Of a stretch of DNA of 30,284 nucleotides, positions 506 to 28,032 are shown in pieces (within the stretch, counting starts at the first letter, position 1; every line of letters starts with the position of its first letter). This stretch comes from Thermoproteota archaeon (GTDB taxonomy: Archaea > Korarchaeota > Korarchaeia > Korarchaeales > Korarchaeaceae), in assembly GCA_037917625.1 (NCBI GenBank), contig JAVCBY010000116.1, positions 1 through 30,284 of the forward strand, given 5' to 3'. The notes under the pieces are model-generated. The model ran no database searches. It worked only from the letters and a program-made list of their open reading frames with translations, and was not told where the DNA came from. The position numbers and the translations under genes were made by a program.

Positions 506-828
506 TTTTGAACTCCCAATCTCTTCAGGGCCTCCAATATCATCTCCTTAGGGGGAAAGCTGTAAACACCGCCTTTCCACTTATACAGCCTAGTGCATGC
601 GGCCTTGTAGATCCCCTTATCCTCAAAGTTAGGATCGACATCTACACCGTTTATCCTCACGGTCGGTACTCCGAGGACTTTATGCTCCACTGCCTCATCA
701 TCGCTCACTAAAACTATCTCCTCTATCTCATAAGATATGCCCGCCTCAGATAAAGTCTCCCTCAACTCCTTCAGGAACTCATCAGCTGGACACTCCGGAG
801 TATAGTAGACTGATACCTTTGCGCTCAT
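502..828 (-). CDS. Small thioredoxin-fold protein (DUF2703-like)
   Basis: Likely start ATG 828 (MSAKVSVYYTPECPA), since the track's extension to 933 overlaps the divergent gene. Cis-Pro-type motif GVPTVRINGVDV and C-terminal ACTRLY...PPKEMILEAL. Confidence 0.7.
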   Translation of the reverse strand: MSAKVSVYYTPECPADEFLKELRETLSEAGISYEIEEIVLVSDDEAVEHKVLGVPTVRINGVDVDPNFEDKGIYKAACTRLYKWKGGVYSFPPKEMILEALKRLGVQK

Positions 829-884
829 ATGATTAATGGACCAATACTCTTTTTTATCTTTCCGGTGAGGGGTGTTGAAGCGGC

Positions 885-2817: not shown

Positions 2818-2838
2818 ATTCCTATTGGAATCATTTAT

Positions 2839-2856
2839 TATTTAAACTTTTAAATA
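2839..2856. promoter_or_regulatory. Back-to-back TATA boxes (perfect inverted repeat) of a divergent promoter
   Basis: TATTTAAA-CT-TTTAAATA. Each TTTAAATA begins 27-29 nt upstream of a start codon (2876 on plus, 2817 on minus). Confidence 0.65.
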
Positions 2857-2875
2857 GATGATTCTCGCTCTTACT

Positions 2876-3958: not shown

Positions 3959-4050
3959 AATATTCATCGAGCTTTTTTTGTAACGCATTATGCGACTATA
4001 CTGAAGGATCACATTTTAATTATTCCTACGATGACTCACCCGAGGCACGT

Positions 4051-4977
4051 ATGGAGCTCGAAGTACTGAGGAGGATCTTGAAGAGCAATGCTAAGAGGAC
4101 CTCTAACCCATTGGGTGTGAGTGAGAGGGAATGCGGGAAATGGTCGAGGGATCTGAACGTACCTGAGAGGGGAGAGGTGCTCCTCTATACGGGATGCTTG
4201 TATCAGATGGCCCCTCAGATAGAGATATTCTCAGATCTCCTGAGGAGATTCGAATCTATCGGGCCCAGCTTCCTGGATCTCTCAATGAGGCTCTACGCTT
4301 CCTTCCTCTCCATGGGGATCGATGCATCAGCTCCTATTAAGCTCATGAAAAAGAAGAACAGATATCTCAATATATTGAAGAATATAGCATATGCTTTGAG
4401 GGAATCTGGTGTCAAATTCGCATGTTTAAGGGAGGAGCCTTATAATGGCGTCCTCTATCACGATCTGGGACTTGATGAACTATTTGAGAAGCAGATGATG
4501 AGGATAGCAGGGAAAATAAGGGAAGCTGGGGCTAAGGAAGTGATAACTGTCGATCCTCACGGTACTTACATGCTGAAGTACCATCTAACTGAATACTTAG
4601 ACGTTGAGGTATTCCATTACTCTGAGATCCTCCTCAAGAGCTACGAGCCTACGAGAAAGGGGCTTGAGGTAACGCTCCACGATCCCTGCTATCTAGCTAG
4701 GTGGAGCGATTCAACGGAGCAGATAAGGGAGCTATTGCGAAAGGCTGGAGTCATTTTAAGGGAATCTGAGTTCTCTAAGAAGTTCACTGGATGCTGTGGA
4801 GGACCAATAGAATCTATTTTCCCGAATTTAGCTTCTAAAATAGCTGAAAAGAGGTTAGAGGAACTGAAGTCGACTGGATCTAGTAAGATAGTGGTAGCCT
4901 GCCCCATCTGCCTCCTCAACTTGAAGAAAGTTGCTGGAGGTTTAGAAGTACTAGATCTCGCGGAGGTGATCGTATGA
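4051..4977 (+). CDS. CCG-domain Fe-S oxidoreductase (LutA/GlpC/HdrD-like)
   Basis: LYTGC, HDPCYLAR, CCGG and ACPIC motifs; the first CCG repeat is degenerate (EPYNG, TVDPH). Start moved to ATG 4051 because 3959-4050 holds a T7 run and a TATA-like TTTTAATTA. Confidence 0.85.
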   Translation: MELEVLRRILKSNAKRTSNPLGVSERECGKWSRDLNVPERGEVLLYTGCLYQMAPQIEIFSDLLRRFESIGPSFLDLSMRLYASFLSMGIDASAPIKLMKKKNRYLNILKNIAYALRESGVKFACLREEPYNGVLYHDLGLDELFEKQMMRIAGKIREAGAKEVITVDPHGTYMLKYHLTEYLDVEVFHYSEILLKSYEPTRKGLEVTLHDPCYLARWSDSTEQIRELLRKAGVILRESEFSKKFTGCCGGPIESIFPNLASKIAEKRLEELKSTGSSKIVVACPICLLNLKKVAGGLEVLDLAEVIV

Positions 4978-6137
4978 ACTTGAGGGGAGTGAGCTCCCTC
5001 CTGATAGAGGCGAGCTCCAACAGTTTCTTGAGGACCTCACTGGATAGAGCTAACCTCTCATACTGGGAGCTGAGGAAGAGCGTGTTCTCAAAGTACCCCT
5101 ATCTGAGGGAACTAGCTGATAAAGTGAGGGAAGTCAAGGAACGCTCATTGGAGAGAATGGAGGAGCTCACTCACATCGCTATGGAGAGCGTAGAGAGGAA
5201 CGGAGGCTTCGCATATTTAGCTAGGACTCCTGATGAAGCTAGGAGGATCGTGGATGAGATAGTAGGCGATAGCAGAGTTATAGTGAAGGGGAAGAGTATA
5301 ACGAGCGATGAAGTTAGGTTCAGGGAACACTTAACGAGTAGAGGAAAGGAGGTCTATGAGACAGATTTGGGGGAGTTCTTAGTTCAGTTCATAGGGCCGA
5401 AATCTATGCATTTCATATCGGTATCCATCCACTTAACTAGGGAGAGGGTCGCCGAGTTCCTGAGGAGTTTCGTGGGGGAGGAGGTTGATAAGGATGATAT
5501 AGAGGGCATGGTGGCTCTCGTCAGGAAGTTCCTGAGGAGGAAGTACTTCGAAGCGGATATAGGGATGAGCGGCGCTAATGCCTTCGCTGCGGACGAGGGA
5601 TGCGGCTTCATAATAGAGAATGAGTCTAATGTGAGACTCTCCATATCGTTACCGAAGAAGCATGTGATGCTCGTGGGTATGGAGAAGGTCTTACCCACGA
5701 TGCTGGATGCTTGGAGGGCCGTGGAAGTCATAACGAGGTATAACGGGTACAAGGTATCATCGTACGTTAACATCGTGAGGGGACCTCAGAAAGATGAGTT
5801 CGGCCCAAGAGAGCTTCATGTGATATTTCTAGATAATGGGAGAGTTGAGAGCTCCCGAGATCCTATTTTGAGAGAGGCTTTACTCTGCCTCAGGTGCGGG
5901 GCCTGCCAGTACTTATGTCCCGTCTTCTGGATAGTCGGCGGTTACTGGGGAGGGTTAAAATCCGTTTACTCCGGTGGGATAGGGGTCATATGGGAGTACA
6001 TAACTGGAAGCAAGGAGGAGGCTATAAAGCATTCCTTCGCATGTCTCCTCTGTGGTAGATGTGAGGAAGCCTGTCCCATGCGAATAGATCAGCAGAAGAT
6101 ACTCAGGGAGATCAGGAGGAGGGGATATGAGCATTGA
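4974..6137 (+). CDS. LUD domain + 2x[4Fe-4S] protein (LutB-like)
   Basis: VKGKSITSDE, ETDLGEFLVQ, SGANAFAA, ENESN, GPRELHVIFLDNGR, CLRCGACQYLCP and CLLCGRCEEACP. ATGA overlap with the upstream CCG gene. Confidence 0.9.
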   Translation: MNLRGVSSLLIEASSNSFLRTSLDRANLSYWELRKSVFSKYPYLRELADKVREVKERSLERMEELTHIAMESVERNGGFAYLARTPDEARRIVDEIVGDSRVIVKGKSITSDEVRFREHLTSRGKEVYETDLGEFLVQFIGPKSMHFISVSIHLTRERVAEFLRSFVGEEVDKDDIEGMVALVRKFLRRKYFEADIGMSGANAFAADEGCGFIIENESNVRLSISLPKKHVMLVGMEKVLPTMLDAWRAVEVITRYNGYKVSSYVNIVRGPQKDEFGPRELHVIFLDNGRVESSRDPILREALLCLRCGACQYLCPVFWIVGGYWGGLKSVYSGGIGVIWEYITGSKEEAIKHSFACLLCGRCEEACPMRIDQQKILREIRRRGYEH

Positions 6138-6201
6138 GGTGAGATCCTCAACCGGCTTTAATATTTGAACCCCTCATCCGAGCATTTCTTGAGGCCTCCA
6201 G

Positions 6202-7185
6202 TTAGAGGAGCTTCAGTAAGGGAGCTAAGTCCATACCCAGGCATTCCGTCAATCTTTTATCGATCAGATATTTCGCTAACTCCTTAGAGTGATCTATCCC
6301 GAGGATCTCCTTCCAGAACGGCCAGAGTTGAGGGCATGGTATTTTTCCCAGTAAGGGCAGCGATAATACATCTTTGAAGGGACTTCTTCCCATGTGCTCC
6401 CTCCTCCCATCATCTAAAATTATGACGTGGACCTCCTTCGGCCCATGAGCGCCGTAAACTACCTTCTTCTCTATATCACCTGTCTTACTGGGACCACCGA
6501 CTACGCTAGCGTAATTGTAACCTTTACTGAGCATCGCGAGCTCCACGATACTGAAACCCTCCTCGTAGTTAGGGACCAACTGATCCATGCCCACTAAAGC
6601 TATGTGCTTCAGTGGGGCCATTGAGATTAGCCTCTCTAAGCCGCTACTCGGGAGGAGGAAGAGAGCCCCCGGATTCACCGAGAGAGCTACTGCATCTGTG
6701 ATCCCGAAATCAGCTCTCTCTATTTTCTCCCTGTAGGTACTGAGTTCCCCTCCTCTCAGTTCCTTGAGCAGGAGCGGGTACTCCGTATCGTAAACTTCAT
6801 TGCCTAACTCAACCAGATATTCACCTAAGCTACATTCCTCAAGTGCAAGAGCGAAAGATTTGAAAACTACTTTCCCGCTTCCCACTATCTCCCCTACAAT
6901 TTTTCTGGCATCTTCCCGAGTCTCCGCTATATAGCACTTCATCCTGTTCTCCTCAAGCTCCCTGCAGGCATTGGCCAGCATTGAATCGATAGGTATCTCA
7001 CTCCTAGACCTCAAAACAGAGTTCAATAGTTCTGGAGGGGGATTCCCATGGGAAGAATATGCTCTGATGAATTCCGCGACCCTCCCGTTCAACCCCCAGG
7101 ATAGAACTTTGTCTATGAGCTCTAGGTTAGATCTAAGCTCGGACCCGGTGAGCTCTGAGTTCGCGAGTGAGTAGAGGAGGCTCAT
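6202..7185 (-). CDS. LUD domain protein (LutC-like, long form, no intact Fe-S motif)
   Basis: ADFGITDA, GGPSKTGDIEKKVVYGAHGPKEVHVIILD. Start ATG 7185 (MSLLYSL) supported by TTTATA at 7215-7210 on the minus strand. Confidence 0.85.
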   Translation of the reverse strand: MSLLYSLANSELTGSELRSNLELIDKVLSWGLNGRVAEFIRAYSSHGNPPPELLNSVLRSRSEIPIDSMLANACRELEENRMKCYIAETREDARKIVGEIVGSGKVVFKSFALALEECSLGEYLVELGNEVYDTEYPLLLKELRGGELSTYREKIERADFGITDAVALSVNPGALFLLPSSGLERLISMAPLKHIALVGMDQLVPNYEEGFSIVELAMLSKGYNYASVVGGPSKTGDIEKKVVYGAHGPKEVHVIILDDGRREHMGRSPFKDVLSLPLLGKIPCPQLWPFWKEILGIDHSKELAKYLIDKRLTECLGMDLAPLLKLL

Positions 7186-7232
7186 CCAGAGAGGGGCTCC
7201 CCTGAAAAATATAAAGATTTCAGTGCAATCCT

Positions 7233-7646
7233 TCAGGAAATGCATCGAGATATCTCGAGCTCCTCAAACCTATCCCCGACTAATCTGAAAGCTTTAAAGC
7301 TCCCGTCCCCTGAGACTATGAGGTAGATGAGGCCCGGGATCGCTCTCTCCTCATCGATCTTCGAGGGTACTGGGGCTCCGAGTGGATGACTATGATAAAC
7401 TCCAATCAGCTCTAAGCCTGATGATTCTGCCTCCTCTATGGCCCTATATGTATCTCGGGGATCCACTTCGTAGAGTGAGTGCGACTCGCTCAAATTTCTG
7501 GCCCTATGAATGCCCCTCACTAAGACTTTTGAGCTCTCTATACGCCCTATGAGCAGGCCGCAAGCCTCCCTAGGCATCTCCTCCATCGCGTGCCTCAATA
7601 TCTCCTCGATTATACGCTCAGGGATTTCCACCTTCAACGGTCCCAT
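7233..7646 (-). CDS. JAMM/MPN+ (Mov34) metalloprotease
   Basis: PREACGLL plus HSHPLGAPVPSKID (E...HxH-x10-D). Confidence 0.92.
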   Translation of the reverse strand: MGPLKVEIPERIIEEILRHAMEEMPREACGLLIGRIESSKVLVRGIHRARNLSESHSLYEVDPRDTYRAIEEAESSGLELIGVYHSHPLGAPVPSKIDEERAIPGLIYLIVSGDGSFKAFRLVGDRFEELEISRCIS

Positions 7647-7689
7647 ACATTATCGATAAGAATATAAGTAAGTGTCCCCTTAACTCATC

Positions 7690-8046
7690 ATGGATTTATT
7701 TATGCCAGAGCTCTTGAGCTTCATAATCACACTCATAGTGAGCGCATTTGTGATATGGCTCGCTCAGAAGATAGTGCTTCCGAGACATAAGGAGAAAGGC
7801 ATCCTCTCAGTTCTGGCATTAGCTTTCTTATGGTCTCTGATAGAATTCGTGCTCTCTCTCATCTTCTCTATAATACCCTTAGGCGTAATAGAGGAGATAG
7901 TGGTCCTCATCCTCTGGATATGGGTACTGAAAGCATGGTTCAATGTGGGTTGGCTTCAAGCAGCAGCTATAGCTCTCGTCGCTTGGATAATAATGCTCGC
8001 GGCGGGATTCTTCTTAGGGATCGGTTCCCTCATGAGGTCCATCTAA
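7690..8046 (+). CDS. Small multi-pass membrane protein, unknown function
   Basis: 118 aa with about four hydrophobic segments; fills the gap between neighbouring genes. Confidence 0.75.
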   Translation: MDLFMPELLSFIITLIVSAFVIWLAQKIVLPRHKEKGILSVLALAFLWSLIEFVLSLIFSIIPLGVIEEIVVLILWIWVLKAWFNVGWLQAAAIALVAWIIMLAAGFFLGIGSLMRSI

Positions 8047-8819
8047 CCAATTATTTTTCTCAATTCATCGAAAGCTCTCCCTATTTCTTTATGTGTGAGG
8101 GCCATATCCTCGAATAATATGGATTTTAGTCTCTCTAATGGGGTCTCATCGAACGCAGCTTCTATGTATCTCAGCCCCCGCCTATCTTTGAGGAACTCTC
8201 TGATCTCATGAGGGCCCTCCTGCAGCTTCAGGAGGCCAGCTACTGCTACAGTCCCTACGGATGATGCTAGAGCTAGAGTACCAGCTTTATTTATCAGATG
8301 AGTCCTAGTAACTCTATCAGCTCCCACCAGTCCAATAGCCCCTCTCTTCATGGAAATCCAGGGGATTAAGGAATCTCTAGTCAATATCACTGAGAACCCA
8401 TATTCCTTCAGGATCCTCGCTGTCTCAAGTCCCTCCCCTCCTGGAAGGGATTCGCTCACTATAACTTCCTCAGGGCCGTACTCTTTAATGCAGTTTATGA
8501 CAGAGGAGCTCCTGCTTATCGTAGCTATTCTCCTAACTCCTAGCTCACTCAAATATTTCGAGCATGTCCTGATGAGCCTCCCCTTTGAGCTCTCGAAGAA
8601 ATCGCGGAGCTTCATCAATAAGCCCCTGCAAGCAGCTCTAGCGAGATGCTCAAGAGCTGACATCTCGGGATGGGCCCTAGCTAGCATTAAAGCATGCTTG
8701 CACGGGTCTTCCATATTCATCAAGATGTTAAGGGCATCCTCGAATATCTCTAGGGATCCCCTCCTCTTATCCTTTACTAGATCCTCAATACTCGTAAGCC
8801 GGACCCTCCTCAAACGCAT
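8043..8819 (-). CDS. eIF-2B alpha/beta/delta family protein
   Basis: RRGSLEI, HPEMSAL, TISRSSSV, ESLPGGEG, LVGADRV, INKAGT, FDETP motifs. Confidence 0.85.
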   Translation of the reverse strand: MRLRRVRLTSIEDLVKDKRRGSLEIFEDALNILMNMEDPCKHALMLARAHPEMSALEHLARAACRGLLMKLRDFFESSKGRLIRTCSKYLSELGVRRIATISRSSSVINCIKEYGPEEVIVSESLPGGEGLETARILKEYGFSVILTRDSLIPWISMKRGAIGLVGADRVTRTHLINKAGTLALASSVGTVAVAGLLKLQEGPHEIREFLKDRRGLRYIEAAFDETPLERLKSILFEDMALTHKEIGRAFDELRKIIG

Positions 8820-10101
8820 ACTTGACGTTCCTGAACTTCTTCCTCAGCTCGCTCACTTCCTCAGCTACCTTCTTAGGATCCTCCTTATCCAAGAGGACCT
8901 TCCTGTAGAACTTAGCTATTTCCCTCATCTCCTCCTCCCCCATCCCTAACCTCGTCAACTCAGCCACACCTAGCCTCAAGCCTCCTGGATCCCTGAAGCT
9001 CCTCCCCCTCTTTATGTCCCAAGGCAGTAAGTTCCTATTCACTATTATATTCGCCTCCTCCAGGAGCTTCTCGCATTTATACCCCCCTCCCAGAGCGTCC
9101 ACATCTAAGAGTACTTGATGAGACTGCGTGAAGCCTAAATGCTCAGCTACTACTGAGAAGCCCTCATCATGGAGCGCTTGAGCTAGGGCTTTAGCATTCC
9201 TCACTACTGCTCTCGCATATTCCTCCCCGAATGCTAACATCTCAGCTGCAGCTAGGGCTAACGCTGCCACAGAGTGCAAGTGGTGATTGCTCAGGAGACC
9301 GGGAAAATTAGCTAATTTTATCTTTTCAAATTTCTCCTCATCGTTAGTGACGACTGCCCCATGCTGAGGACCGAAGAAAGTCTTGTGAGTGCTCATCGAC
9401 ATCACATCCGCTCCTTCCTCCATAGGCTGTTGGAACTGCTTCCCAGCTATGAGGCCAGCTACATGAGCTGCATCATAATGTAAAAGAGCTCCTATTGACT
9501 TGCATACATTAGAGAGCTCCTTAACAGGATGAGGGAAGAGTATCACGCTCCCTCCAAGTATTACTAGCTTAGGCTTGTTCTCCTCTATCCTCTTTATGCT
9601 CTTATCAACATCTATATTCATGTTATGATCATCGAAAGCCAGGTACTTGACATCGAGCCCCCTGACAGCTCCAGCAGTCCCTCCGATGAACTGACCCTCG
9701 CTTCCCCTGAGGGGCCCCATGCTTATGTGCCCTCCTTTCGTTATCGGGAGGGCCATCGCTACATCCCCAGGATTAGTGAATGCAGTATATACAGCTAAAT
9801 TTGCGATTACACCGCTTATTGGCCTTACATCAGCGAACTTAACGTTAAAAAGCTTCTTAACTAGCTCTATAGCTATTGATTCTACTTCATCTATGTACTT
9901 AGTCCCCGCGTAAACCCTCTCCCCCACCCATCCCTCAGCGTATCTATGACCGAAATCTGAGGTCATAGCTTTTTTAACAGCTGGGCTAGTTACGTTCTCG
10001 CTCGCTATCATCGGGAGGGATGAATCGAACCACTTATGATGCTCCAGTATTGATGATTTAACCCTCTCATATGCCTCGATAGGATCCAAAGCGACACCCA
10101 A
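8785..10101 (-). CDS. glyA: Serine hydroxymethyltransferase
   Basis: IASEN, RYAEG, GGHISM, YDAAHVAGLIAG, STHKTFFGPQHG, GLRLG motifs. Confidence 0.97.
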   Translation of the reverse strand: MGVALDPIEAYERVKSSILEHHKWFDSSLPMIASENVTSPAVKKAMTSDFGHRYAEGWVGERVYAGTKYIDEVESIAIELVKKLFNVKFADVRPISGVIANLAVYTAFTNPGDVAMALPITKGGHISMGPLRGSEGQFIGGTAGAVRGLDVKYLAFDDHNMNIDVDKSIKRIEENKPKLVILGGSVILFPHPVKELSNVCKSIGALLHYDAAHVAGLIAGKQFQQPMEEGADVMSMSTHKTFFGPQHGAVVTNDEEKFEKIKLANFPGLLSNHHLHSVAALALAAAEMLAFGEEYARAVVRNAKALAQALHDEGFSVVAEHLGFTQSHQVLLDVDALGGGYKCEKLLEEANIIVNRNLLPWDIKRGRSFRDPGGLRLGVAELTRLGMGEEEMREIAKFYRKVLLDKEDPKKVAEEVSELRKKFRNVKYAFEEGPAYEY

Positions 10102-17405: not shown

Positions 17406-17480
17406 TGCTCCGGCCGGGATTTGAACCCGGGTCTGGGGCTCGAAAGGCCCCTATGCTTGACCGGGCTACACCACCGGAGC
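17406..17480 (-). tRNA. tRNA-Glu (anticodon TTC)
   Basis: Reverse complement: acceptor GCTCCGG/CCGGAGC-A, anticodon arm GGGGC-CTTTCGA-GCCCC, T arm CCGGG-TTCAAAT-CCCGG. CCA not encoded. Confidence 0.97.
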
Positions 17481-17519
17481 CCAGGTGAAGAGCGTATGGG
17501 AAATATAAATATTTCGGGA

Positions 17520-18047
17520 TTGATCGTGGTCATAGGCGCTCCGGGATCGGGGAAGACGAGGATAGCTAAACTCATAGCTGAGAGATTGAGGTGCAAGTAT
17601 TTGAACGTTGGGGAGCTTTCGTTAGAGAAGGGCTACATTCTAGGCAGGGATGATGAGAGAGGATCCTATATAATAGATGAGGAGAGAGTGAGAGAGGAGA
17701 TATCTAAGATGGAGGATACTATCGTAGTTGAGACGATAAGTCCTTATGCGATCCCTCGGGACAAAGTATCCTTAGTTATTGCGGTGAGATGCAGGCCCTC
17801 CATACTCCTCGAGAGGCTGAGGGAGAGAGGATATTCTAAGAGCAAGATAAGGGAGAACTTGGAGTATGAGGCTATAGATGGTCCTCTCTTCGATGCCATG
17901 CAGATAGCTGATGTCAGTAAGATAATCGAGATAGATGGCTACGAGGGAAGTGATGAGGAAATCTATGATGCCCTGAGAGGTATTAGGAAAGGCATTGGGA
18001 GGTTCAATTGGACCCAAGATTTCCTCTCAATACTAGAGGAGGTATGA
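17520..18047 (+). CDS. AK6/Fap7-type adenylate kinase
   Basis: IVVIGAPGSGKT P-loop, LLERLRERGYSKSKIRENLEYE. The track's start at 17421 lies inside the antisense tRNA-Glu, so the start is TTG 17520 (or ATG 17496). Confidence 0.88.
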   Translation: MIVVIGAPGSGKTRIAKLIAERLRCKYLNVGELSLEKGYILGRDDERGSYIIDEERVREEISKMEDTIVVETISPYAIPRDKVSLVIAVRCRPSILLERLRERGYSKSKIRENLEYEAIDGPLFDAMQIADVSKIIEIDGYEGSDEEIYDALRGIRKGIGRFNWTQDFLSILEEV

Positions 18048-18237: not shown

Positions 18238-18313
18238 GGGCCGGTGGTCTAGTGGCTATGACGCCGCCTTGACGAGGCGGAGGTCGTGGGTTCGAGTCCC
18301 ACCCGGCCCACCA
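18238..18313 (+). tRNA. tRNA-Val (anticodon GAC)
   Basis: Same body as the tRNA at 13522, with anticodon loop TTGACGA. CCA encoded at 18311-18313. Upstream GGGAAA-TTTTTATT promoter. Confidence 0.97.
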
Positions 18314-18921: not shown

Positions 18922-19254
18922 TTGAGTAAAGTCAGGCTGAGTTCGGTTAGGAGTGATCCCATATTCGATATAGATATACTGAGTTTCGAGTCACTAGATG
19001 GGTCGTTCGAGGCGACTCTAGAGTTTCCCAAGGGTCTCATCGAACTGAAGGAGGGCATGGAAGCGGATTTAACGCTGGGGGAGGAGGGTGAGGGGGATAT
19101 AATAATGAAGGGGATTGTCTATAAGTTTGATGATTCTTCCAAAACTATTGAAATATCATTCCATGGACTCCTGATGAAGTTGACTTACTCAAGGGCAGCA
19201 CCGTTCAAACTTAGCCAAGGAGAGGAGGTCTATCTAACGATAAAGTTCGCTTAA
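18922..19254 (+). CDS. rpo8: RNA polymerase subunit Rpo8 (Rpb8 homolog)
   Basis: IIMKGIVYKF...ISFHGLLMKL...VYLTI matches the Rpb8 YVMxGxVY...SFGGLLMxL signature. SD AGGTGA upstream. Confidence 0.85.
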   Translation: MSKVRLSSVRSDPIFDIDILSFESLDGSFEATLEFPKGLIELKEGMEADLTLGEEGEGDIIMKGIVYKFDDSSKTIEISFHGLLMKLTYSRAAPFKLSQGEEVYLTIKFA

Positions 19255-19265
19255 TTACGAAACTA

Positions 19266-19280
19266 TTTTTTTATTTTTCT
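19266..19280 (+). terminator. T-rich terminator after rpo8
   Basis: TTTTTTTATTTTTCT shortly after the stop codon. Confidence 0.6.
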
Positions 19281-19318
19281 GGAGGAAAAGATTAATATTT
19301 GTGAATATTGATATCATC

Positions 19319-19918
19319 ATGATGGAAGAAGAGGAGGAGTTCCTAGGAATTCCTTTCGAGGGGTATGGGAAGCTCCCTGAAGGGAGGAGCAGGACCAAGG
19401 AGATAGTTAGGGATCTAGGGCTACCTGATGAGGTTGAAAAACTTGCGAGCGAATTATTCAGGAGGTATAGGATTAGCGGGAGGCGAGCACGCTTAGCAGC
19501 TATAGCTAGTGTAGCTTTAGCGAGTAGGATATATGGATTCGCGATCCCAATCAAGAAGATAATGGAGGAAGTTGGCCTTAAAGCGTCGCGTAGAGCTCTA
19601 CTAAGATCGATGAGTATGATGAAAACTGGAGGTGTAGAATGGGACGCTTATCTTAACTACGCCTTGATGAAAGTCTCGGAGGAGCTGCCGCCTTTAGTTA
19701 GGGAGAGGCTAATGATAAACGCCAAAAGAGAAATGATAAAAATCTTGAGGAGGAGAGAGCTCATATTAGGTCGTAATCCTTTTCACATAGTCGCTTTAGC
19801 TATTTACTTTGCAGCTAGGAGGAGTGGTCTCCGAATTACGTTGAGGATGATAGCCTCGAATCTAGGAGTGAGTGAGAGCTCGGTTCGCAGAGTGAAGAGG
19901 TTGATTAAAGATGGATGA
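19319..19918 (+). CDS. TFB/TFIIB core-only paralog (two cyclin folds + HTH, no Zn ribbon)
   Basis: Repeat 1 LGLPDEV...SGRRARLAAIASVALASR; repeat 2 GRNPFHIVALAIYFAAR...ITLRMIASNLGVSESSVRR. No Cys in the protein. GAAAAG-ATTAATAT promoter at 19285-19298. Confidence 0.8.
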   Translation: MMEEEEEFLGIPFEGYGKLPEGRSRTKEIVRDLGLPDEVEKLASELFRRYRISGRRARLAAIASVALASRIYGFAIPIKKIMEEVGLKASRRALLRSMSMMKTGGVEWDAYLNYALMKVSEELPPLVRERLMINAKREMIKILRRRELILGRNPFHIVALAIYFAARRSGLRITLRMIASNLGVSESSVRRVKRLIKDG

Positions 19919-20042
19919 GGAGTTCTTCTTCGAGATAGAGACCTTAAAGAATCAGATAGAGTACCTATTCTTCAAACTGGAGGAAGTTATGAGGAAGATA
20001 GAGTCTATCGAGGAGAGGCTATCTAGGATGGGAGGAGAATGA
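19911..20042 (+). CDS. 43-aa acidic coiled-coil microprotein
   Basis: Not in the track: MDEEFFFEIETLKNQIEYLFFKLEEVMRKIESIEERLSRMGGE. Overlaps the upstream gene by 8 nt and the downstream ATG by ATGA; heptad hydrophobic pattern. Confidence 0.8.
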   Translation: MDEEFFFEIETLKNQIEYLFFKLEEVMRKIESIEERLSRMGGE

Positions 20043-21685
20043 CTATTAAAAGGGAAGATCTAGATATTTACTTATTGATTGCTGCCTTAATAATTCTATT
20101 ATTTTTTAAGAACTACGGAAATATAGTGAAGATTTTAATGAATTTATCCATGTATTTATTCATGATGCTCGCTGCCGTATCTTTAATCCTCCTCATCAAG
20201 GTGAAGAAGCCCCTACCCCGCAAGGGTCTCTTAGTAGTTCCAGCTAGGCTCTCTGTTTACGATAAAGATGCAAATATAAACTTGAATAAGATAAAGGATA
20301 TTGCAGAAGAAATGGGATTTAGGATAATATTTTTAATATCAATCGGGAAGGGCGCCGGGTTCATGGGGAGGAGCTCGGGGAGGGTCTCCTATAAGGTGCT
20401 CCTCTTAGGGAAGGATAGGGAGCTTATAAGAGCGGGAGCTTCAGCTATAAACAGTACCTCAGAGGGGTTCAAGATAGAGCTTATGGAGAGGAGCCTAAGC
20501 CCAGATTTAGCTCAGGAAATAATTGAAATTTGTGATGAGAGTGAGGTAGCATCTATAGGGGTCGGGAGGAGCTCTGAGAGGGATGAGCCCTTATTGGAGC
20601 TCGGGGAGAGGAGGGGTAGAGTCGTAGGAATTCCGGTAAGCGAGTTGACTAAGCATACATTAGTTATCGGACAGACAGGATCTGGAAAAACAACGACGGT
20701 CAAGAGAATTATATATGAAGCTTGGAACCTTGGAATACCATCTTTAGTGCTCGATTCCCACTGGGAGTATCGGAACTTGATCTTCGGGATGGGAGGCAGG
20801 ATATTCTGCAGTAGAGCGGGATATCCGCAGATATGCATAAATCCTCTGATCTCAATACCTAAGGGAGAGAAAGAGATATTCTTAGTAGCTGAGACATTAT
20901 CTTCCCTCTTAGACCTCACGCCTTCCCAGTTCTACTTACTCCTGAAGGCATTAAGAAGGTTAAGCGATATTTCAAGCGAGAAAAATCCGCCTAATATATA
21001 CGATTTACTTATGGAGATTAAGGGTTTCTCAGTGAGTTCCCAACCTGAGGAGGAGAGCAGGGCTTCACTCGTGAGGAAGTTAGAGCCATTAGTCTCTGGG
21101 GGTGGGGAGGCTATTTTCAAATGTGACAATATACTTTCAACGGGTTTTGAGGAGGTCCCCACGCTCTTAGAGCTAGGAGATATAGAGAGCGATCTCCAGA
21201 AGAGGTTAGTAGCGTTCTTCACTCTGAAGAGGATAAAAGACTACTATATAAGGGAGGAAGCTAAGTCCAGATATCCTAGGCTCATAGTCGTACTTGAGGA
21301 AGCTGAAAAGTTGATCCCCTACTATAAGGATCAGATTGGTATGGAGCTCATCAGCAGGCTATTTGCGGAGCTTAGGAAATTCGGAGTAGCATTAATATTG
21401 GTCTCTCAGAGCCTCTCTGAGATACCTGAAGGAGTTGTGAGGAATGCTGGAATTAAGATAATCCATAAGGTTGAATCCCCAAGCGATCTAAGGTCTCTGA
21501 GGGCCTTCATAAGGGAGAAAAATATTATGGATAAGATACTGACCTTAGCTCCCGGTGAATGTATAATGAATCTCCCGGGAGGCTTAGAGAGCTTGCAAGT
21601 GAGGCCTGTGGATGAGTTACCGCTCAGTAGGGAGTCCTTGGATGAAGCGATCATGATGAACTCATTTTATTGGATCTCAAGATGA
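20039..21685 (+). CDS. Membrane-anchored HerA/VirB4-family ATPase (DUF87; CedB-like architecture)
   Basis: Two N-terminal TM helices; HTLVIGQTGSGKTT, VLDSHWEY, IVVLEEAE, ELRKFGVALILVSQS. SD GGAGG upstream. Confidence 0.88.
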   Translation: MTIKREDLDIYLLIAALIILLFFKNYGNIVKILMNLSMYLFMMLAAVSLILLIKVKKPLPRKGLLVVPARLSVYDKDANINLNKIKDIAEEMGFRIIFLISIGKGAGFMGRSSGRVSYKVLLLGKDRELIRAGASAINSTSEGFKIELMERSLSPDLAQEIIEICDESEVASIGVGRSSERDEPLLELGERRGRVVGIPVSELTKHTLVIGQTGSGKTTTVKRIIYEAWNLGIPSLVLDSHWEYRNLIFGMGGRIFCSRAGYPQICINPLISIPKGEKEIFLVAETLSSLLDLTPSQFYLLLKALRRLSDISSEKNPPNIYDLLMEIKGFSVSSQPEEESRASLVRKLEPLVSGGGEAIFKCDNILSTGFEEVPTLLELGDIESDLQKRLVAFFTLKRIKDYYIREEAKSRYPRLIVVLEEAEKLIPYYKDQIGMELISRLFAELRKFGVALILVSQSLSEIPEGVVRNAGIKIIHKVESPSDLRSLRAFIREKNIMDKILTLAPGECIMNLPGGLESLQVRPVDELPLSRESLDEAIMMNSFYWISR

Positions 21686-21925: not shown

Positions 21926-22267
21926 ATGGACGATAGAATTATCAGAGATTTGAGTGAGATCATAAGGAAGGTAAAGGCTGGTGAGGGAGTGGATAAGAGT
22001 AAGATCGAGGGGATAAAGAAGTCTATATCTGGTGTGGAGGATCCGATCCTCAGGAAGCACCTACTCGCCCTAGTTGAGGAGATAGATAGGGGTTACGAGG
22101 AGGGAGACATCTTGAGCAAATTGCTCCTACATGAGAGCTCGGAGGTAACTAAGATGAAGAGCGCTATCCTCGAGTTCATGTATGAGGAACCATTCGAAGG
22201 GCTAGATCTCAAGCGGACCCTAGAGTTCTGGAGGAGGCTTCTGGAATCCCTTGAGAGGAAAAAATAA
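21926..22267 (+). CDS. Hypothetical charged helical protein
   Basis: AGGTGA SD and TTTTTAA TATA upstream; typical codon use. Confidence 0.8.
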   Translation: MDDRIIRDLSEIIRKVKAGEGVDKSKIEGIKKSISGVEDPILRKHLLALVEEIDRGYEEGDILSKLLLHESSEVTKMKSAILEFMYEEPFEGLDLKRTLEFWRRLLESLERKK

Positions 22268-22377: not shown

Positions 22378-23517
22378 CTAAACTTTACTACCCTTTATCG
22401 AGTACCTGCCCGTTTCAGTCTTGTAGACGATCCCCTCCCTCATTAGCTCAGATATTAAAGCATTAGCTTCAATCAGCTTCAAGCCCCAGACTCTTGAAGC
22501 GTCTACCAATGAAAAAGATGTTCCTGGTGGGAATTTCTTCCTTAAGGCATCGAATTCCTCCTTTAAACCATCAGGTATTTTCTCCTCGAGAATCCCTCCT
22601 TCCGGTGGGGTTTCCTTGCCCTCATCCGCCGACTTAACTATTTGAAGGACTTTTTCCTTGCTCAATTTTCCACTTTCCCTCAACTCCTTAGTCAATACTG
22701 CTAAGACATTCCTAGCAAGTTTCATCAACTTTCTAGGATTGCCCTCCGCCATCTCATTCATCTTAATGACGAGATCCTCTGTGAATGGTTCATCCATCCC
22801 GAAATCTCTAGCTTCTTTGTTCATTAAAGCTCTATAATATTCTAACCTCTTCTTCAGGATCCTGCTAGCTTCAGCCGGACTGAGCCTCTTCATCTCGATC
22901 TTCTCATGGGGCACATCCATGAGCCTCTTCACTATATCGTAAGCTGGAGGGATGCACCCTATGACTATCGCTTTACCCCCATTGAGTCTCTGGAAGATCC
23001 TTGAGATAGCTTTAGAGAAAAGCTCGGCATCCTTCCTGGTCCCAAACACGACAACGTTCTCTACTTCATCGAGGAGGAGGGCTGCTAGATCATAGCTATT
23101 GAGCTCATTTATTATAATCTCTATCAGCTGATCGGGATCCTTGGGGATCCTCCTCTTCAACAACTTAACAGGTATTCCGCTCTTGATCACGTGAGCGACC
23201 CTATATATAGCTGTGCTGAAATCGTCGACATCTATCTTAACATAGAATGTGGAAGCTTCTTCTAATATTTCACCGATGAGCCTCAACCTATGAGTTTTCC
23301 CGGTTCCGAACTCCCCAACTAGGAAAATTAACCTCTTCTCCCTATTTTTGACGACTTTATCGAGAATATCAGCCAATTTCTCATCAATATCGGTATCCAC
23401 ATGAACTTCCCTTACTTCTTCAAGGCTCTCACTGCTCAAGTAAGCGAAAGGATTTGCTCTAAGCATCCATCTCAGATAGCCAGCCTCAATCACCTTGATG
23501 TCACTCTCATCAGGCAT
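22378..23517 (-). CDS. AAA+ ATPase with C-terminal winged helix
   Basis: N-terminal NPF, Walker A GEFGTGKT, Walker B LLLDEVE, sensor-II-like AEGNPRKL, C-terminal wHTH FSLVDASRVWGL...ELMREGIVYKTETGRY. Confidence 0.85.
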   Translation of the reverse strand: MPDESDIKVIEAGYLRWMLRANPFAYLSSESLEEVREVHVDTDIDEKLADILDKVVKNREKRLIFLVGEFGTGKTHRLRLIGEILEEASTFYVKIDVDDFSTAIYRVAHVIKSGIPVKLLKRRIPKDPDQLIEIIINELNSYDLAALLLDEVENVVVFGTRKDAELFSKAISRIFQRLNGGKAIVIGCIPPAYDIVKRLMDVPHEKIEMKRLSPAEASRILKKRLEYYRALMNKEARDFGMDEPFTEDLVIKMNEMAEGNPRKLMKLARNVLAVLTKELRESGKLSKEKVLQIVKSADEGKETPPEGGILEEKIPDGLKEEFDALRKKFPPGTSFSLVDASRVWGLKLIEANALISELMREGIVYKTETGRYSIKGSKV

Positions 23518-24692: not shown

Positions 24693-25841
24693 GTGACCAT
24701 ACCTATAGTGAGGGATCCCAAGCTCTTCTCTGATTCATATACCCCTAGCAGGCTACCTCATAGGGAAAAGGAAGTAGAGACCCTCTATAATGCCCTATCA
24801 TCCGGATATGAGCTTAATGAGGGTCTTGTTCTGCTGAAAGGGGAGCCTGGAGTTGGTAAGACATCAGTAGCAAGGTTATCAGCTAGTAAGCTCTCAAATC
24901 TGGGTATTGAAACAGTACATATAAATTGCAGGACTTATCGCTCTCCTTCCTCCGCTCTTCAGAAGATAATAGCTTCTATAATCCCTGGAGTCCCTGAGAG
25001 AGGGCTTAGCTATGAGGAGATGGTCCTGATGCTGGAGAAGATCATGGGGAAGGAAGGGAAGCCTCTCCTCATAATTCTGGATGAGATAGAGTACTTAAGG
25101 GAGGGGGAGACCCTAGTATACACCCTTTTGAGGCTCCATGAGGGGGGAGCGACTAAGAGCCCGACTTTAGTTGCTGTAGCGAGATGGGATCCCCCATACA
25201 CATTGGACGATTCCATAAAGAGCTTCATGATACTCAAGCTCACCTTAGAGAAGTATAGCGCTTCACAACTGAGGGACATCTTAGCTTTTAGGGCTTCTGA
25301 AGCGTTATACGATGGAAGCTATGACTCCGATGTCATAGAGAAGGTAGTTGACCTCTCTAAACACACTGGAAACGCTAGAATCGCTCTAAAGATGCTATTC
25401 TCCGCTGCGAGGCTCGCGGAGGAGAGAGGGTTGAGCTTGATAACCCCAGATTTAGTTAGTGAAGCTGCAGCGAGGATAGGGGTGGTCGGGATAACTGAGG
25501 ATTCCTTGATGCCATTAGATACTCACGATAAACTACTGCTCTTAGCCGCAGCCAAAAGGTTGGCGATGACCAGCAGGGGATGGATAAAGATGGGGGACCT
25601 CTTGGAGGAATATAAGCTCATATGCGAGGAACTGGGCATAATCCCCTATAAGTATACGGCAGTATGGAAGAGAGTGAGGGATCTGAAGAACATGGGATTC
25701 GTGGAGACGAAGCGGAGCGGTGAGGGGATGAAGGGGCAATCTACTCTAATTTCACTGGGCTCCATTCCAGCTGAAAGGCTAGCGGAGAAGCTCAAGGAGA
25801 TATTGAGGGAGGACCTAAGTCCCCTTCCCTCCAGCTTCTAA
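24693..25841 (+). CDS. cdc6: Orc1/Cdc6 replication initiator
   Basis: YTPSRLPHRE, GEPGVGKT, HINC, IILDEIE, YSASQLRDILAFRA, GNARIAL, C-terminal wHTH. Confidence 0.93.
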   Translation: MTIPIVRDPKLFSDSYTPSRLPHREKEVETLYNALSSGYELNEGLVLLKGEPGVGKTSVARLSASKLSNLGIETVHINCRTYRSPSSALQKIIASIIPGVPERGLSYEEMVLMLEKIMGKEGKPLLIILDEIEYLREGETLVYTLLRLHEGGATKSPTLVAVARWDPPYTLDDSIKSFMILKLTLEKYSASQLRDILAFRASEALYDGSYDSDVIEKVVDLSKHTGNARIALKMLFSAARLAEERGLSLITPDLVSEAAARIGVVGITEDSLMPLDTHDKLLLLAAAKRLAMTSRGWIKMGDLLEEYKLICEELGIIPYKYTAVWKRVRDLKNMGFVETKRSGEGMKGQSTLISLGSIPAERLAEKLKEILREDLSPLPSSF

Positions 25842-27068
25842 CTTATATATCTCCTCGATATCTGAGAGTATTTCCCTCATATCGCTCTCCCTAATCCCCA
25901 GTTCCCTCCCCAGCTGCCTTAAGATCTTCCCCCCTGCTTTAGCATCAGCTATGAGGAGAGGTATTAACTCCATCCTGGCGACAGCTGTGGATACGTGAGT
26001 TTTCTTAGCTATCTTCTCCAGGAATTCTTTCGTCTTAGATCTCATCTCCTTCGTCGCTGAGAGTTGCTTTATCAGGGATGGGGGTCTGAGCTTTTCGCCT
26101 TCCGGCCTCCCCTCCTTTACTGCGCACACGCCGAAGGTCATCAGTTGAGTGTAGTAAGCTAAGAACCTCCAGTTGTTAGTCCTTATTATCCTCCCCCTCA
26201 TCAGGTCCGCGAGCGAGAGCATCTCGTAGGCCCTAGATAATGATCTACCGCTGTAAACGTGAGCTACGTTCTCCTCGATCCACCTGAAGAGCATATCTGG
26301 ATCCATATCTAGATTGAGGGAGGAGAGGTAAGCTGGGTAGCAATTCTCACCGTAGAATATGGAGCTGAGGACCTTGAAGACATCCGTCTCTATATCCCTC
26401 TTCCCATACTTCTCGCCGATATGTTTGAGGAGCTCAGTAGAACCTTTAACGAGCCCCTCAAGATCATTTATAGCAGCTCTAAGATCCCCTTGACAGGATT
26501 TAGCTATCTTATTTAGGACTTCTTCTGGAACGTTCAGCCCCTCCTTCCTGCATATCTCCTTCAGGACGCTAACTACACTCTGCCATCTTATCCTGGAGAA
26601 CTTCACCATAATCGAGAGGTTCCTTATCTCATGTAGGTGCCTCTCATAAGGATCGTTTGCCGTCATTACGATGGGGACGTTCCCCTTAGATATGAGCTCT
26701 TTGACCAAGGAAGCTATCGCGTGTCCCTCCCCAGGGAGGACATCTATCTCATCCAAGATTATGAGCCTCCTCTTGCCACTCAACAAGCTTACAGCACTAG
26801 AGCTCTCAACTATATATTGTAAGTGAGCTCTATCCCTCAGATCGCTCGCATTCACCTCTATAGCATCGTAATTGAGCTCATTTGCGATAGCGTGAGCTGC
26901 TGATGTCTTTCCAGTCCCAGGAGGTCCCACTATTAAGAGGGGCTTTACTCTCTTCCCCTCTCTCAAATCCTTTATCCAATTCCTTATCTCATCTATAGCT
27001 TCCTTCTGCCCCTTTATCTCATCTAGAGTCCTCGGCCTATGTTTCTCTACCCACGGCACCTCTCTCAT
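25815..27068 (-). CDS. rfcL: Replication factor C large subunit
   Basis: PWVEKHRP, GPPGTGKT, EVNASD, ILDEID, GDLRAAINDL, WIEEN. ATG 27068 follows a GGTGA SD. Confidence 0.95.
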   Translation of the reverse strand: MREVPWVEKHRPRTLDEIKGQKEAIDEIRNWIKDLREGKRVKPLLIVGPPGTGKTSAAHAIANELNYDAIEVNASDLRDRAHLQYIVESSSAVSLLSGKRRLIILDEIDVLPGEGHAIASLVKELISKGNVPIVMTANDPYERHLHEIRNLSIMVKFSRIRWQSVVSVLKEICRKEGLNVPEEVLNKIAKSCQGDLRAAINDLEGLVKGSTELLKHIGEKYGKRDIETDVFKVLSSIFYGENCYPAYLSSLNLDMDPDMLFRWIEENVAHVYSGRSLSRAYEMLSLADLMRGRIIRTNNWRFLAYYTQLMTFGVCAVKEGRPEGEKLRPPSLIKQLSATKEMRSKTKEFLEKIAKKTHVSTAVARMELIPLLIADAKAGGKILRQLGRELGIRESDMREILSDIEEIYKLEAGGKGT

Positions 27069-28032
27069 GGGATTCACCGACCTCCACTAGTTTAGCGAGC
27101 ATCGCAGCTAGCTGAACATCTCCGTGAGCTCCCTCGGTGACCCTGAAGTCAACATCACTCAGGAATATCATGAGCATTGCCTTCTCCCTATCTGATAGGG
27201 ATTTGCTCGCCATTATCTCCCTATTGAGCTGCCTTATGACGTCCTGCGCCGACATCCCATAGTTTATCATCAAGTTCCTTAGGGCCTCCCTAGCGGATAG
27301 GAACTTCCCCTTGAGGGCTGAGTTTATCATCGCCCTGACTTCCTCTGGATGCGCCAAGCCTGCCACTCTGTAAACGACCTTAGAGTCCACTGTGCTCGCC
27401 ATAGCTGATGCTGTCTGAAGCAAGTTTATCGCCTTCCTCAAGTCCCCTTCCGCAACGTATATTATAGCTGATATCCCATCCTCTGTGTACTTCAGTCCCT
27501 CCCTCTCAGCTATCATGATCAGCCTGTTCTTCACGGCTTCCTCAGGTATCGGTCCGAATCTGAAGACAGCGCATCTCGACTGTATCGGTTCTATTATCTT
27601 CGAGGAATAATTGCAAGCGAATATGAATCTTGTGGTAACTGAGTACATCTCCATTATCCTCCTCAGGGCCTGCTGAGCGTCTGCTGTTAAGTTATCAGCT
27701 TCATCTAAGTGTATTATCTTGAATGGAACTTCTCCAAAAGGAGCTGTCTTAGCGAAATCCTTTATCTTAGTCCTTATCGTATCTATACCTCTCTCATCAC
27801 TCGCATTGAGCTCCAGATAGTTAGCGGCTACGAGCTCCTCGGATTTATAGAGATCGTTAGCTAGCGCTAATGCAGTTGTAGTCTTTCCAGTACCAGCTGG
27901 ACCAGCGAAGAGTAGATGAGGCATCGATCTCTTCTCAACAAATCCCTTAAGGGCTCTTATAACATCATCTTGCCCAACGACATCATCCAATGTTTTCGGC
28001 CTGTACTTCTCCACCCACAGCTCGAAGGTCAT
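27037..28032 (-). CDS. rfcS: Replication factor C small subunit (no intein)
   Basis: WVEKYRP, GPAGTGKTT, ELNASDERG, LDEAD, AQQALRR, IQSRC. Confidence 0.97.
   Translation of the reverse strand: MTFELWVEKYRPKTLDDVVGQDDVIRALKGFVEKRSMPHLLFAGPAGTGKTTTALALANDLYKSEELVAANYLELNASDERGIDTIRTKIKDFAKTAPFGEVPFKIIHLDEADNLTADAQQALRRIMEMYSVTTRFIFACNYSSKIIEPIQSRCAVFRFGPIPEEAVKNRLIMIAEREGLKYTEDGISAIIYVAEGDLRKAINLLQTASAMASTVDSKVVYRVAGLAHPEEVRAMINSALKGKFLSAREALRNLMINYGMSAQDVIRQLNREIMASKSLSDREKAMLMIFLSDVDFRVTEGAHGDVQLAAMLAKLVEVGESHERGAVGRET

Follow-up and report, generated by a model that had tools for sequence, protein, structure and literature searches.

A korarchaeal gene module that pairs a divergent TFB paralog with a membrane-anchored ATPase related to CedD and CedB

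Why should a divergent paralog of the general transcription factor TFB be encoded hard against the gene for a membrane-anchored P-loop ATPase of the HerA/VirB4 fold? The question is raised by a 30,284 nt stretch of DNA (contig JAVCBY010000116.1 of assembly GCA_037917625.1; hereafter the window) from a Thermoproteota archaeon of the family Korarchaeaceae, whose assembly amounts to 1.22 Mb and is 84% complete. Downstream of rpo8, three overlapping open reading frames (ORFs) of the window encode the TFB paralog, a 43 amino acid (aa) microprotein and the ATPase. In the Sulfolobales, TFB3, a truncated TFB paralog, activates the ups and ced genes after DNA damage, and, to our knowledge, TFB3 and the Ced system are known only from Sulfolobales-type archaea. 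An initial annotation of the window had proposed a candidate undescribed module in which a "headless" TFB and a coiled-coil microprotein accompany a membrane HerA/VirB4 ATPase, and had read it as a lineage-specific DNA-transfer or damage-response system or as a DNA pump that uses the TFB core as an adaptor. The results presented here point to an ATPase that would translocate DNA in association with a pilus and would have a TFB-type regulator of its own, in a module that is old in Thermoproteota and Korarchaeota and is seen here in its korarchaeal form, a reading that we advance tentatively and would place a little short of an even chance.

The ORF list, the Pfam matches and the AlphaFold2 (AF2) folds bore out the three overlapping ORFs together with the domains initially assigned to them. 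Four genes, namely rpo8, the TFB-like gene, the 43 aa ORF and the ATPase gene, lie on the same strand within positions 18922-21685; the TFB-like gene and the 43 aa ORF share 8 nt, whereas the 43 aa ORF and the ATPase gene share 4 nt (ATGA). Because the ORFs overlap and are preceded by a single promoter-like element, the three probably constitute an operon and would be co-transcribed.

The ATPase contains a Pfam HerA central domain (2.4e-11), with a Walker A motif at residues 211-219 and a Walker-B-like motif at residues 415-422. A transmembrane (TM) hairpin (residues ~5-56) is followed by a beta-rich N-domain (~65-150) and the ATPase domain (~185-530), hydrophobic segments starting at residues ~5 and ~29 and the AF2 model placing helices at 5-24 and 26-56 ahead of the beta-rich and ATPase domains. 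The fold matches HerA (4d2i, E 2e-17) and VirB4 (4ag6, TMt 0.72); a search of the ESM Atlas with residues 1-195 was uninformative (best score 0.76). Among the curated NCBIfam models, CedD ranked first (134 bits), ahead of two HerA models (48 and 45 bits), VirB4 (31 bits) and CedB (~25 bits), all of these scores being far below the respective cut-offs. For CedD (NF053655, an equivalog model with a cut-off of 600 bits), the score was 134.1 bits (133.5 in the genome search) and the alignment covered residues 195-513 only; VirB4 (TIGR00929) reached 30.8 of the 643 bits required and CedB (NF041017) 25.6 of 700, and the FtsK and VirB4 models gave only 21-31 bits. CedD was also the top model for all ten more distant relatives that were scanned, among the 150 listed (146-254 bits, none over the cut-off). 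Thus, the kinship to the Ced system that had been proposed from the sequence is real, but CedD rather than CedB is the nearest of its ATPases.

To place the family, 95 ATPase domains were compared in a quick IQ-TREE analysis (LG+G4 with SH-aLRT support, without mixture model or bootstrap). The references were five true CedD proteins (those over the 600-bit cut-off among 151 sampled Thermoproteota genomes), four CedB, five HerA and eight VirB4-like proteins; VirD4, FtsK and named TedB/TedD sequences were left out. All korarchaeal ATPases form one group (SH-aLRT 91) within a clade (SH-aLRT 92) that also holds ATPases of Nitrososphaeria, Brockarchaeota, Geothermarchaeota and some Thermoprotei metagenome-assembled genomes (MAGs), as well as bacterial proteins of ~1000 aa. 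The sister clade (SH-aLRT 99) consists of CedD, CedB and Desulfurococcales-type relatives. A second HerA-like gene of the same genome, on contig C62, groups with HerA (SH-aLRT 98-99); its product combines a HAS barrel with HerA domains, and its neighbour is an Mre11-type gene. A Pfam scan detected no HAS barrel in the window ATPase, which falls outside the HerA family as defined. In approximately unbiased (AU) tests, joining the korarchaeal sequences to the CedD/CedB clade was not rejected (p 0.565), whereas forcing them together with HerA cost 50 log-likelihood (lnL) units (p-AU 0.032). In view of the tree, the AU tests and the separate HAS-barrel HerA on C62, we regard the window ATPase, as judged from its sequence, as a member of the CedD/CedB-related superclade that is not HerA and not demonstrably CedD, in line with the initial expectation that it would not group with housekeeping HerA.

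The bacterial members of the tree merit a remark of their own. These proteins of ~870-1100 aa, from Latescibacterota, Clostridia, Legionella, Streptomyces and others, have an ATPase domain that groups with the korarchaeal and pilus-linked clade and not with CedD or HerA (loci L066, L069, L073, L077-L080, L082-L084, L086, L088, L089, L091, L093-L095, L101, L104, L108 and L111).

How widely is the arrangement conserved? A search of the phylum returned an ATPase match in all 43 korarchaeal genomes, including all 25 of high quality. In three of these (G001-G003, representing the two deepest families) the match is a different, longer paralog of 840-890 aa, and no TFB-like gene was found within the stretches fetched around it (L197, L198, L199). 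Of the 30 korarchaeal loci compared (L005-L034), three (L010, L011, L027) end at the ATPase gene, leaving 27 assessable; in all 27 the TFB-like gene lies directly upstream of the ATPase gene, being detected by tblastn (E<1e-3) in 26 and counted by position and alignment only in L033. The same pair is present in all four genomes of two further korarchaeal families (G004-G007), so that it was found in 31 of 31 assessable loci from three families. The rpo8 gene precedes the TFB-like gene in 22 of the 27 loci (tblastn E<1e-3) and additionally in G004 and G005, and a gene for a Fap7/adenylate-kinase-like P-loop kinase (hereafter Fap7-like), which in the window lies 2 kb upstream, is also present in G004-G007. 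Conservation of the triplet, which had been named as a test of the module, was therefore confirmed across Korarchaeota, the pair recurring in every assessable locus and the microprotein in every assessable locus of the window's genus. As a side observation, the 840-890 aa paralog of G001-G003 belongs to the HerA superfamily, and L100, a relative of this paralog, falls in neither of the two main clades of the tree.

The protein encoded upstream of the ATPase matches the Pfam TFIIB repeat (8.4e-12) and scores 26-28 bits on the NCBIfam model of canonical TFB (NF001658, cut-off 384 bits), where only model positions 133-302 are aligned and the ribbon is not. The canonical TFB of this genome, encoded on contig C30, scores 291 bits on the same model. 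In the AF2 model of the paralog (pLDDT 79) residues 1-28 are disordered and eleven helices follow; the best fold in the PDB is the TFB core of P. woesei (1ais_B, 188 columns), with TM-scores that are low because the orientation of the two repeats differs. An hhalign comparison of the paralog family with eight canonical TFBs gave a probability of 99.7% over 174 columns that cover both cyclin repeats. The window paralog consists of two cyclin repeats with a C-terminal helix-turn-helix and is devoid of Zn ribbon, B-reader and B-linker; of the hallmarks of a canonical TFB (ribbon, B-reader/B-linker, two cyclin repeats and a score of at least 384 bits), the cyclin repeats are the only one present.

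The term "headless" suits the window protein, but it does not describe a founding trait of the family. The Pfam TFIIB model matches 18 of 21 aligned korarchaeal members, and the Pfam TFIIB zinc-binding model is reached by 7 of the 21. An N-terminal ribbon of the form CxxC...CxxC is present in 18 of the 31 korarchaeal orthologues (14 of the 27 loci plus G004-G007). It is missing in the subclade of the window and in several other subclades, and its state changes at least four times on the ATPase tree; as far as these alignments go, the ribbon-less form is derived, by repeated, lineage-specific loss. Where the ribbon is retained, it is separated from the core by ~16 alignment columns, as compared to ~80 in canonical TFBs, and because of this short gap we consider the B-reader and B-linker to be missing from the whole paralog family.

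Outside Korarchaeota, the relatives of the ATPase have a distinctive setting. The pilus-linked group comprises 22 non-korarchaeal archaeal loci (L037-L058, L097), 19 assigned by tree position and three by similarity, of which 20 have enough upstream DNA to be assessed. In 20 of these 20, a T2SSE secretion ATPase is encoded on the same strand ~1.5 kb upstream, and in 22 of 22 loci a convergent Fap7-like gene lies downstream of the ATPase gene. By the same count, none of 19 CedD-type loci has the T2SSE gene and 7 have the Fap7-like gene. In the five pilus-linked loci for which ORFs were listed (L037, L038, L040, L046, L049), genes for membrane proteins separate the T2SSE gene from the ATPase gene, and pilin-like genes are found upstream in divergent orientation; an ORF for an ~85 aa helix-TM protein is present in three of these loci as well. 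Furthermore, a TFB homologue was found beside the pilus locus in all five non-korarchaeal genomes that were searched whole. On the canonical TFB model two of these homologues score ~40 bits and three fall short of E 1e-5; canonical TFBs scoring 295-469 bits were identified in four of the five genomes and none was found in G047. In a small tree, the five pilus-side paralogs and 16 korarchaeal paralogs are separated from eight canonical TFBs, among them the window genome's own (SH-aLRT 99.4).

In the window genome itself, the only T2SSE locus detected is on a separate contig, C106 (locus L192), and it is here that the pilin-like genes, whose presence elsewhere in the genome was to be looked for, were found: several small pilin-like ORFs with hydrophobic N-termini accompany the T2SSE gene and an ORF for a 318 aa protein that has no Pfam match and is TadC-like by position. 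In the four korarchaeal genomes that have the pilus ATPase gene and the module on one contig, 20-326 kb separate the two, and in a fifth genome they are on separate contigs. The absence of an adjacent gene for a CedA-like polytopic membrane protein, noted initially, agrees with a crude hydropathy scan in which the only multi-TM-like ORFs within 12 kb encode 118 and 125 aa. We also observed a thermosome gene 6 kb from the pilus locus on C106 and a thermosome-like gene adjoining the ATPase locus in L037.

A TFB paralog is likewise found near true cedD genes. In all five Sulfolobales-type genomes with a CedD above the cut-off, a ribbon-bearing TFB3-type gene of 166-195 aa lies ~1.7 kb from cedD; one thermosome-like gene occupies the interval and an rpo8-like gene is located a few kb away, both of the latter having been named by reading the sequence. 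However, the parallel to TFB3 holds by position only. In hhalign, TFB3 aligns with canonical TFB from the ribbon to the first cyclin repeat (171 columns), whereas with the korarchaeal family only the ribbon of the ribbon-bearing members is aligned (30 columns), and orthology between TFB3 and the korarchaeal paralog is thus unsupported. Directly upstream of cedD, and codirectional with it, all five of these genomes encode a 118-132 aa protein with invariant cysteines; the idea that this protein might be a remnant of a TFB core was rejected (hhalign probability 0.2%). Overall, the module looks like the korarchaeal form of a neighbourhood that extends across Thermoproteota and combines a divergent TFB paralog, a type IV pilus-like operon, this ATPase clade, a Fap7-like kinase and rpo8; with its themes so widely shared, the notion of a lineage-specific module could not be maintained.

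The microprotein encoded between the two large genes is predicted to be one amphipathic, coiled-coil-like helix in which E8, E10, Q15, I16, F20 and F21 are nearly invariant. Pairwise differences at its first, second and third codon positions (0.33/0.18/0.54; 31 codons, 17 orthologues) show a pattern that is, on this comparison, that of coding sequence. It is present in all 19 loci of the genus that could be assessed for the microprotein and promoter comparisons (tblastn E<=6e-6). Beyond the genus, L028 has a positional candidate, and G006 and G007 have a 42 aa coiled-coil ORF that occupies the same position and overlaps both neighbours, with a profile E-value of only 0.0027; no microprotein was found in L026, L029, L031, L032, L034, G004 and G005, where the two large genes overlap directly. 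A complex prediction for the ATPase, the TFB-like protein and the microprotein, with the last as the partner, gave no verdict (score 0.00, in a run without controls). Homology to the ~85 aa helix-TM proteins encoded before pilus-linked ATPases was considered and dismissed: the microprotein profile matched L112 alone, a match that is circular because L112 comes from the same genome as a member of the profile. Its conservation makes the 43 aa protein a small-protein candidate worth a partner search.

The 64 nt between rpo8 and the paralog contain a T-rich tract, a purine-rich run that resembles a B recognition element (BRE), and the TATA-like octamer ATTAATAT, which starts 28 nt 5' of the first in-frame ATG of the TFB-like gene. 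That the operon has a promoter-like element of its own after rpo8, as initially annotated, is supported by a like BRE/TATA-like element, identified by regular expression 22-34 nt 5' of the start codon in 16 of the 19 genus loci. The promoter-to-start spacing suggests that the mRNA of the TFB-like gene may be leaderless or nearly so. Reading the same 19 loci, we found that in 17 the T-rich element precedes the TATA-like box by 31-32 nt, independent of the distance to the rpo8 stop codon; this element may serve as terminator of rpo8, as a cis element linked to the promoter, or as both, and in appearance it resembles an operator or a further BRE/TATA-like site. The composite of the T-rich and BRE/TATA elements occurs once in the 1.22 Mb assembly, and used there as a probe for a regulon it matched the operon's own promoter alone. 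The texts of PMC5817253 and PMC6061795 describe A(N)TTTC as the damage-response hexamer of Sulfolobales; at the equivalent site upstream of the BRE this hexamer is exact in 2 of the 19 genus loci and present as NNTTTC in 8, and it is thus not conserved. A scan for bacterial-type promoters and terminators was set aside, as the host is archaeal.

Table 1. Coordinates of the module, of neighbouring features and of further loci discussed in the text (window positions unless another locus or contig is named)
Feature	Position	Strand	Remarks
tRNA-Glu(UUC)	17406-17480	-	overlaps 5' end of the longest ORF of the kinase gene (TTG 17421)
Fap7/adenylate-kinase-like P-loop kinase gene	17421-18047	+	Pfam AAA_18 1.2e-21; syntenic companion of the ATPase family
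tRNA-Val(GAC)	18238-18313	+	
rpo8 (RpoG/Rpb8-like RNA polymerase subunit)	18922-19254	+	Pfam RNA_pol_Rpb8 1e-5; conserved upstream neighbour
T-rich element ([AT][CT]GAAA, T-run, ATTT)	19257-19278	+	conserved in genus
BRE-like purine run and TATA-like octamer ATTAATAT	19281-19298	+	octamer at 19291-19298
Divergent TFB paralog	19319-19918	+	ORF open from GTG 19301; in-frame ATGs 19319, 19322; 199-205 aa
43 aa microprotein	19911-20042	+	single helix, coiled-coil-like; overlaps both neighbours
Membrane-anchored HerA/VirB4-fold P-loop ATPase	20039-21685	+	548 aa
Helical protein	21926-22267	+	113 aa
AAA_22/ORC-like ATPase	22378-23517	-	379 aa
Orc1/Cdc6	24693-25841	+	
RFC large and small subunit genes	25815-28032	-	
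Pilus locus of the window genome	C106 (L192): 1-9800		
T2SSE secretion ATPase	C106: 344-1912		
TadC-like ORF (by position)	C106: 1869-2825		318 aa
118-132 aa protein upstream of cedD	L162: 6842-7240	-	
118-132 aa protein upstream of cedD	L163: 6953-7351	-	
118-132 aa protein upstream of cedD	L164: 5244-5618	+	
118-132 aa protein upstream of cedD	L165: 7304-7696	-	
118-132 aa protein upstream of cedD	L166: 5188-5544	+	

As the tRNA-Glu gene and the longest ORF called for the Fap7-like kinase gene overlap, the true start of the latter is probably downstream of position 17480. On the other side of the module (Table 1), the helical 113 aa protein has no family match, is kept only in the four closest genomes (L005-L008) and lies outside the conserved module. 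The AAA_22/ORC-like ATPase has a weak NCBIfam match to a model of an anti-phage protein (6.6e-7), and it is followed by a bona fide Orc1/Cdc6 gene and by the genes for the RFC subunits. In Sulfolobales, the Orc1 paralog Orc1-2 is the master regulator of the damage response.

What, then, might the module do? In the reading that we tentatively favour, the promoter after rpo8 would yield one mRNA from which the three overlapping ORFs are translated together. The ATPase, membrane-anchored and presumably hexameric, would most likely move DNA at the membrane, in cell-to-cell exchange or uptake, working with a type IV pilus-like apparatus whose genes lie at another place in Korarchaeota (in the window genome, on C106). 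The TFB paralog, which keeps a predicted TBP/BRE-binding core, would most likely be the promoter-bound regulator of the module, in a role like that of TFB3 for ced and ups in Sulfolobales; without B-reader and B-linker, and here also without ribbon, it should be unable to initiate transcription alone. The 43 aa helix may be a conserved small partner of the ATPase or of the paralog, and in Korarchaeota the module would have been reduced to a compact operon. Several points weigh against this proposal. Expression, DNA binding and transport are all inferred from sequence; the CedD match is weak, far under its cut-off and limited to the ATPase domain; and the quick tree sets the korarchaeal ATPases with the pilus-linked clade, outside CedD/CedB, placements that the AU test cannot separate. 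The CedB model identified no CedB orthologue in the 84%-complete assembly, its sole match being the window ATPase (24.8 bits). The parallel to TFB3 is, as seen above, one of position and not of orthology, and the split in the TFB tree joins two long-branched groups and may be inflated, for which reason we take it as a caution rather than as proof. Finally, pilus genes are unlinked from the module in Korarchaeota, where the functional tie would be drawn from relatives only, and a near-universal single-copy gene with housekeeping neighbours would be compatible with a core role in the cell as well.

The alternatives differ from the favoured reading, and from one another, chiefly on two points: the substrate that the ATPase moves, and the site at which the TFB core acts, promoters or the pump. 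The last position of the ATPase gene in a T2SSE/membrane-protein operon in 20 of 20 assessable pilus-linked relatives, with pilin-like genes nearby, together with the statement in the text of PMC4858521 that the regulators predicted in archaeal pilus loci are most often TFIIB homologues, would suit an ATPase that does not move DNA at all and is an accessory motor of the pilus-like machine (for assembly, retraction or the export of protein or pilin), with the TFB paralog regulating pilus genes. We judge this unlikely, if well worth keeping in mind, since DNA translocases (HerA, VirB4, CedD, CedB) make up its fold class and family, the two relatives studied by experiment, CedB and CedD, serve DNA import, and the korarchaeal gene is unlinked from the pilus locus. 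It is a shade less probable, and in our opinion doubtful, that the pump physically includes the TFB core and the microprotein as subunits, which would then not be regulators of transcription, the core serving as a DNA-binding adaptor, as the initial annotation had suggested, or being tethered by the ATPase at the membrane and let go when the latter works. The overlap of the ORFs implies coupled synthesis of all three proteins, the ribbon has been lost at least four times while the core was kept, the B-reader and linker are missing in all members, and the microprotein has a strongly conserved face, all of which would be in keeping with such contacts; however, the contacts themselves are a proposal, and in the five ORF-listed loci outside Korarchaeota the paralog is encoded apart from the ATPase, beyond the divergent pilin-like genes. 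Least probable, indeed very unlikely, is a housekeeping DNA role, as a HerA-like repair helicase or an FtsK-like segregation or division pump, in which case the neighbours would represent old housekeeping synteny. Single-copy occurrence nearly throughout the phylum and a location among rpo8, Fap7-like, Orc1/Cdc6 and RFC genes, with a Fap7 adjacency that is conserved far beyond Korarchaeota, speak for it. Yet the genome has a separate HAS-barrel HerA beside an Mre11-type gene, grouping with HerA is disfavoured by the AU test, the FtsK and VirB4 scores are very low, and a divergent TFB paralog has been kept directly upstream in 31 of 31 assessable loci.

A bolder reading, which we put forward as speculation and consider rather improbable, is that the common ancestor of Korarchaeota and Thermoproteota had a DNA-exchange apparatus in which a type IV pilus-like machine and a CedB/CedD-type membrane pump were encoded next to a B-reader-less TFB paralog and rpo8, that the TFB3-Ced/Ups circuit of Sulfolobales descends from it, and that in Korarchaeota the paralog, having lost its ribbon repeatedly, and the 43 aa helix became co-translated partners of the pump. 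If this were true, pump activity at the membrane would control a general-factor-like protein and so couple DNA translocation directly to promoter occupancy. Independently of this scenario, the matching neighbourhoods of Nitrososphaeria, Brockarchaeota, Thermoprotei and Sulfolobales suggest an ancient link between a TFB paralog and a CedD/CedB-type ATPase, which bears on the origin of the TFB3 circuit and, as the proteins are small and thermostable, is open to biochemistry. The paralogs, occurring with and without ribbon and in no case with a B-reader, offer natural experiments on what a TFB core does alone, and the pilus-linked ATPase clade may represent a route of DNA uptake in lineages with none known, including relatives of the ammonia oxidisers.

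Parts of the system are already in print, and it was therefore only for the korarchaeal operon and the deep synteny that the initial description as "undescribed" stood. In 2007, the text of PMC2234397 listed a "TFIIIB" (TFIIB-type) gene as a common neighbour of rpoG, codirectional in the korarchaeote, and in 2016 TFIIB homologues were described as frequent in archaeal pilus loci and as the commonest predicted regulators there (main text of PMC4858521). CedD and TedD were described in 2025 (PMC11823120; PMC11868833): according to the text of the former, CedD is a membrane ATPase that is essential for DNA import and belongs to the TFB3-dependent UV regulon, and TedD is encoded within the ted locus; the text of the latter gives the architecture of CedD, and the occurrence of CedB, CedD and VirB4 for Crenarchaeota only. 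HerA-like genes carried by Ted loci are mentioned in the text of PMC9905601. In full-text searches of the literature, apart from supplementary homologue tables, we found no treatment of Korarchaeota in connection with Ced, TedD or the operon, and no description of the deep synteny.

Among known systems, CedD/TedD, the VirD4-like membrane ATPase of Ced/Ted DNA import, is the best curated match of the window ATPase and a member of the same superclade. As in CedD (layout according to the text of PMC11868833), TM segment(s), an N-domain and a HerA/VirB4-like ATPase domain are combined in one protein, with a TFB paralog gene close by and rpo8 in the neighbourhood. The window protein differs in scoring 134 rather than 600 bits, over the ATPase domain only, and in falling outside the CedD clade in the quick tree, although the AU test did not reject a position with CedD/CedB; moreover, in the korarchaeal locus the TFB paralog shares the putative operon, the microprotein is encoded between the two, and the assembly has no detected CedB. 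TFB3, too, is a non-canonical TFB paralog without B-reader that is encoded near a CedD-type ATPase gene, but it retains the ribbon and the first cyclin repeat, whereas the window protein has both cyclin repeats and no ribbon; the text of PMC3189178 describes TFB3 of T. tenax, like that of S. solfataricus, as lacking one cyclin fold. Housekeeping HerA of the nurA-herA-mre11-rad50 type shares the P-loop fold and the Pfam central domain with the window ATPase, which in contrast has a TM hairpin instead of the HAS barrel, a different operon and a separate clade. A parallel in gene content is the Thermoproteales clade 4D operon, in which a secretion ATPase and a membrane protein are encoded with the TFIIB variant arCOG05559 and RPB8 (main text of PMC4858521). 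What it shares with the korarchaeal locus is a predicted operon in which a pumping ATPase is encoded together with a divergent TFIIB/TFB homologue and rpo8/RPB8, although its ATPase is of the T2SSE/VirB11 type and its TFIIB variant combines a ribbon with a single cyclin domain, as opposed to a HerA/CedD-type ATPase and two cyclin repeats in Korarchaeota. In Nitrososphaeria, Brockarchaeota, Geothermarchaeota and some Thermoprotei MAGs, the pilus-linked CedD-like ATPases share a clade with the korarchaeal proteins in the quick tree and likewise have a divergent TFB paralog and a Fap7-like gene nearby; there the ATPase gene ends an operon for T2SSE, two membrane proteins and the ~85 aa helix-TM protein, whereas in Korarchaeota those genes are elsewhere and it is the TFB paralog that abuts the ATPase.

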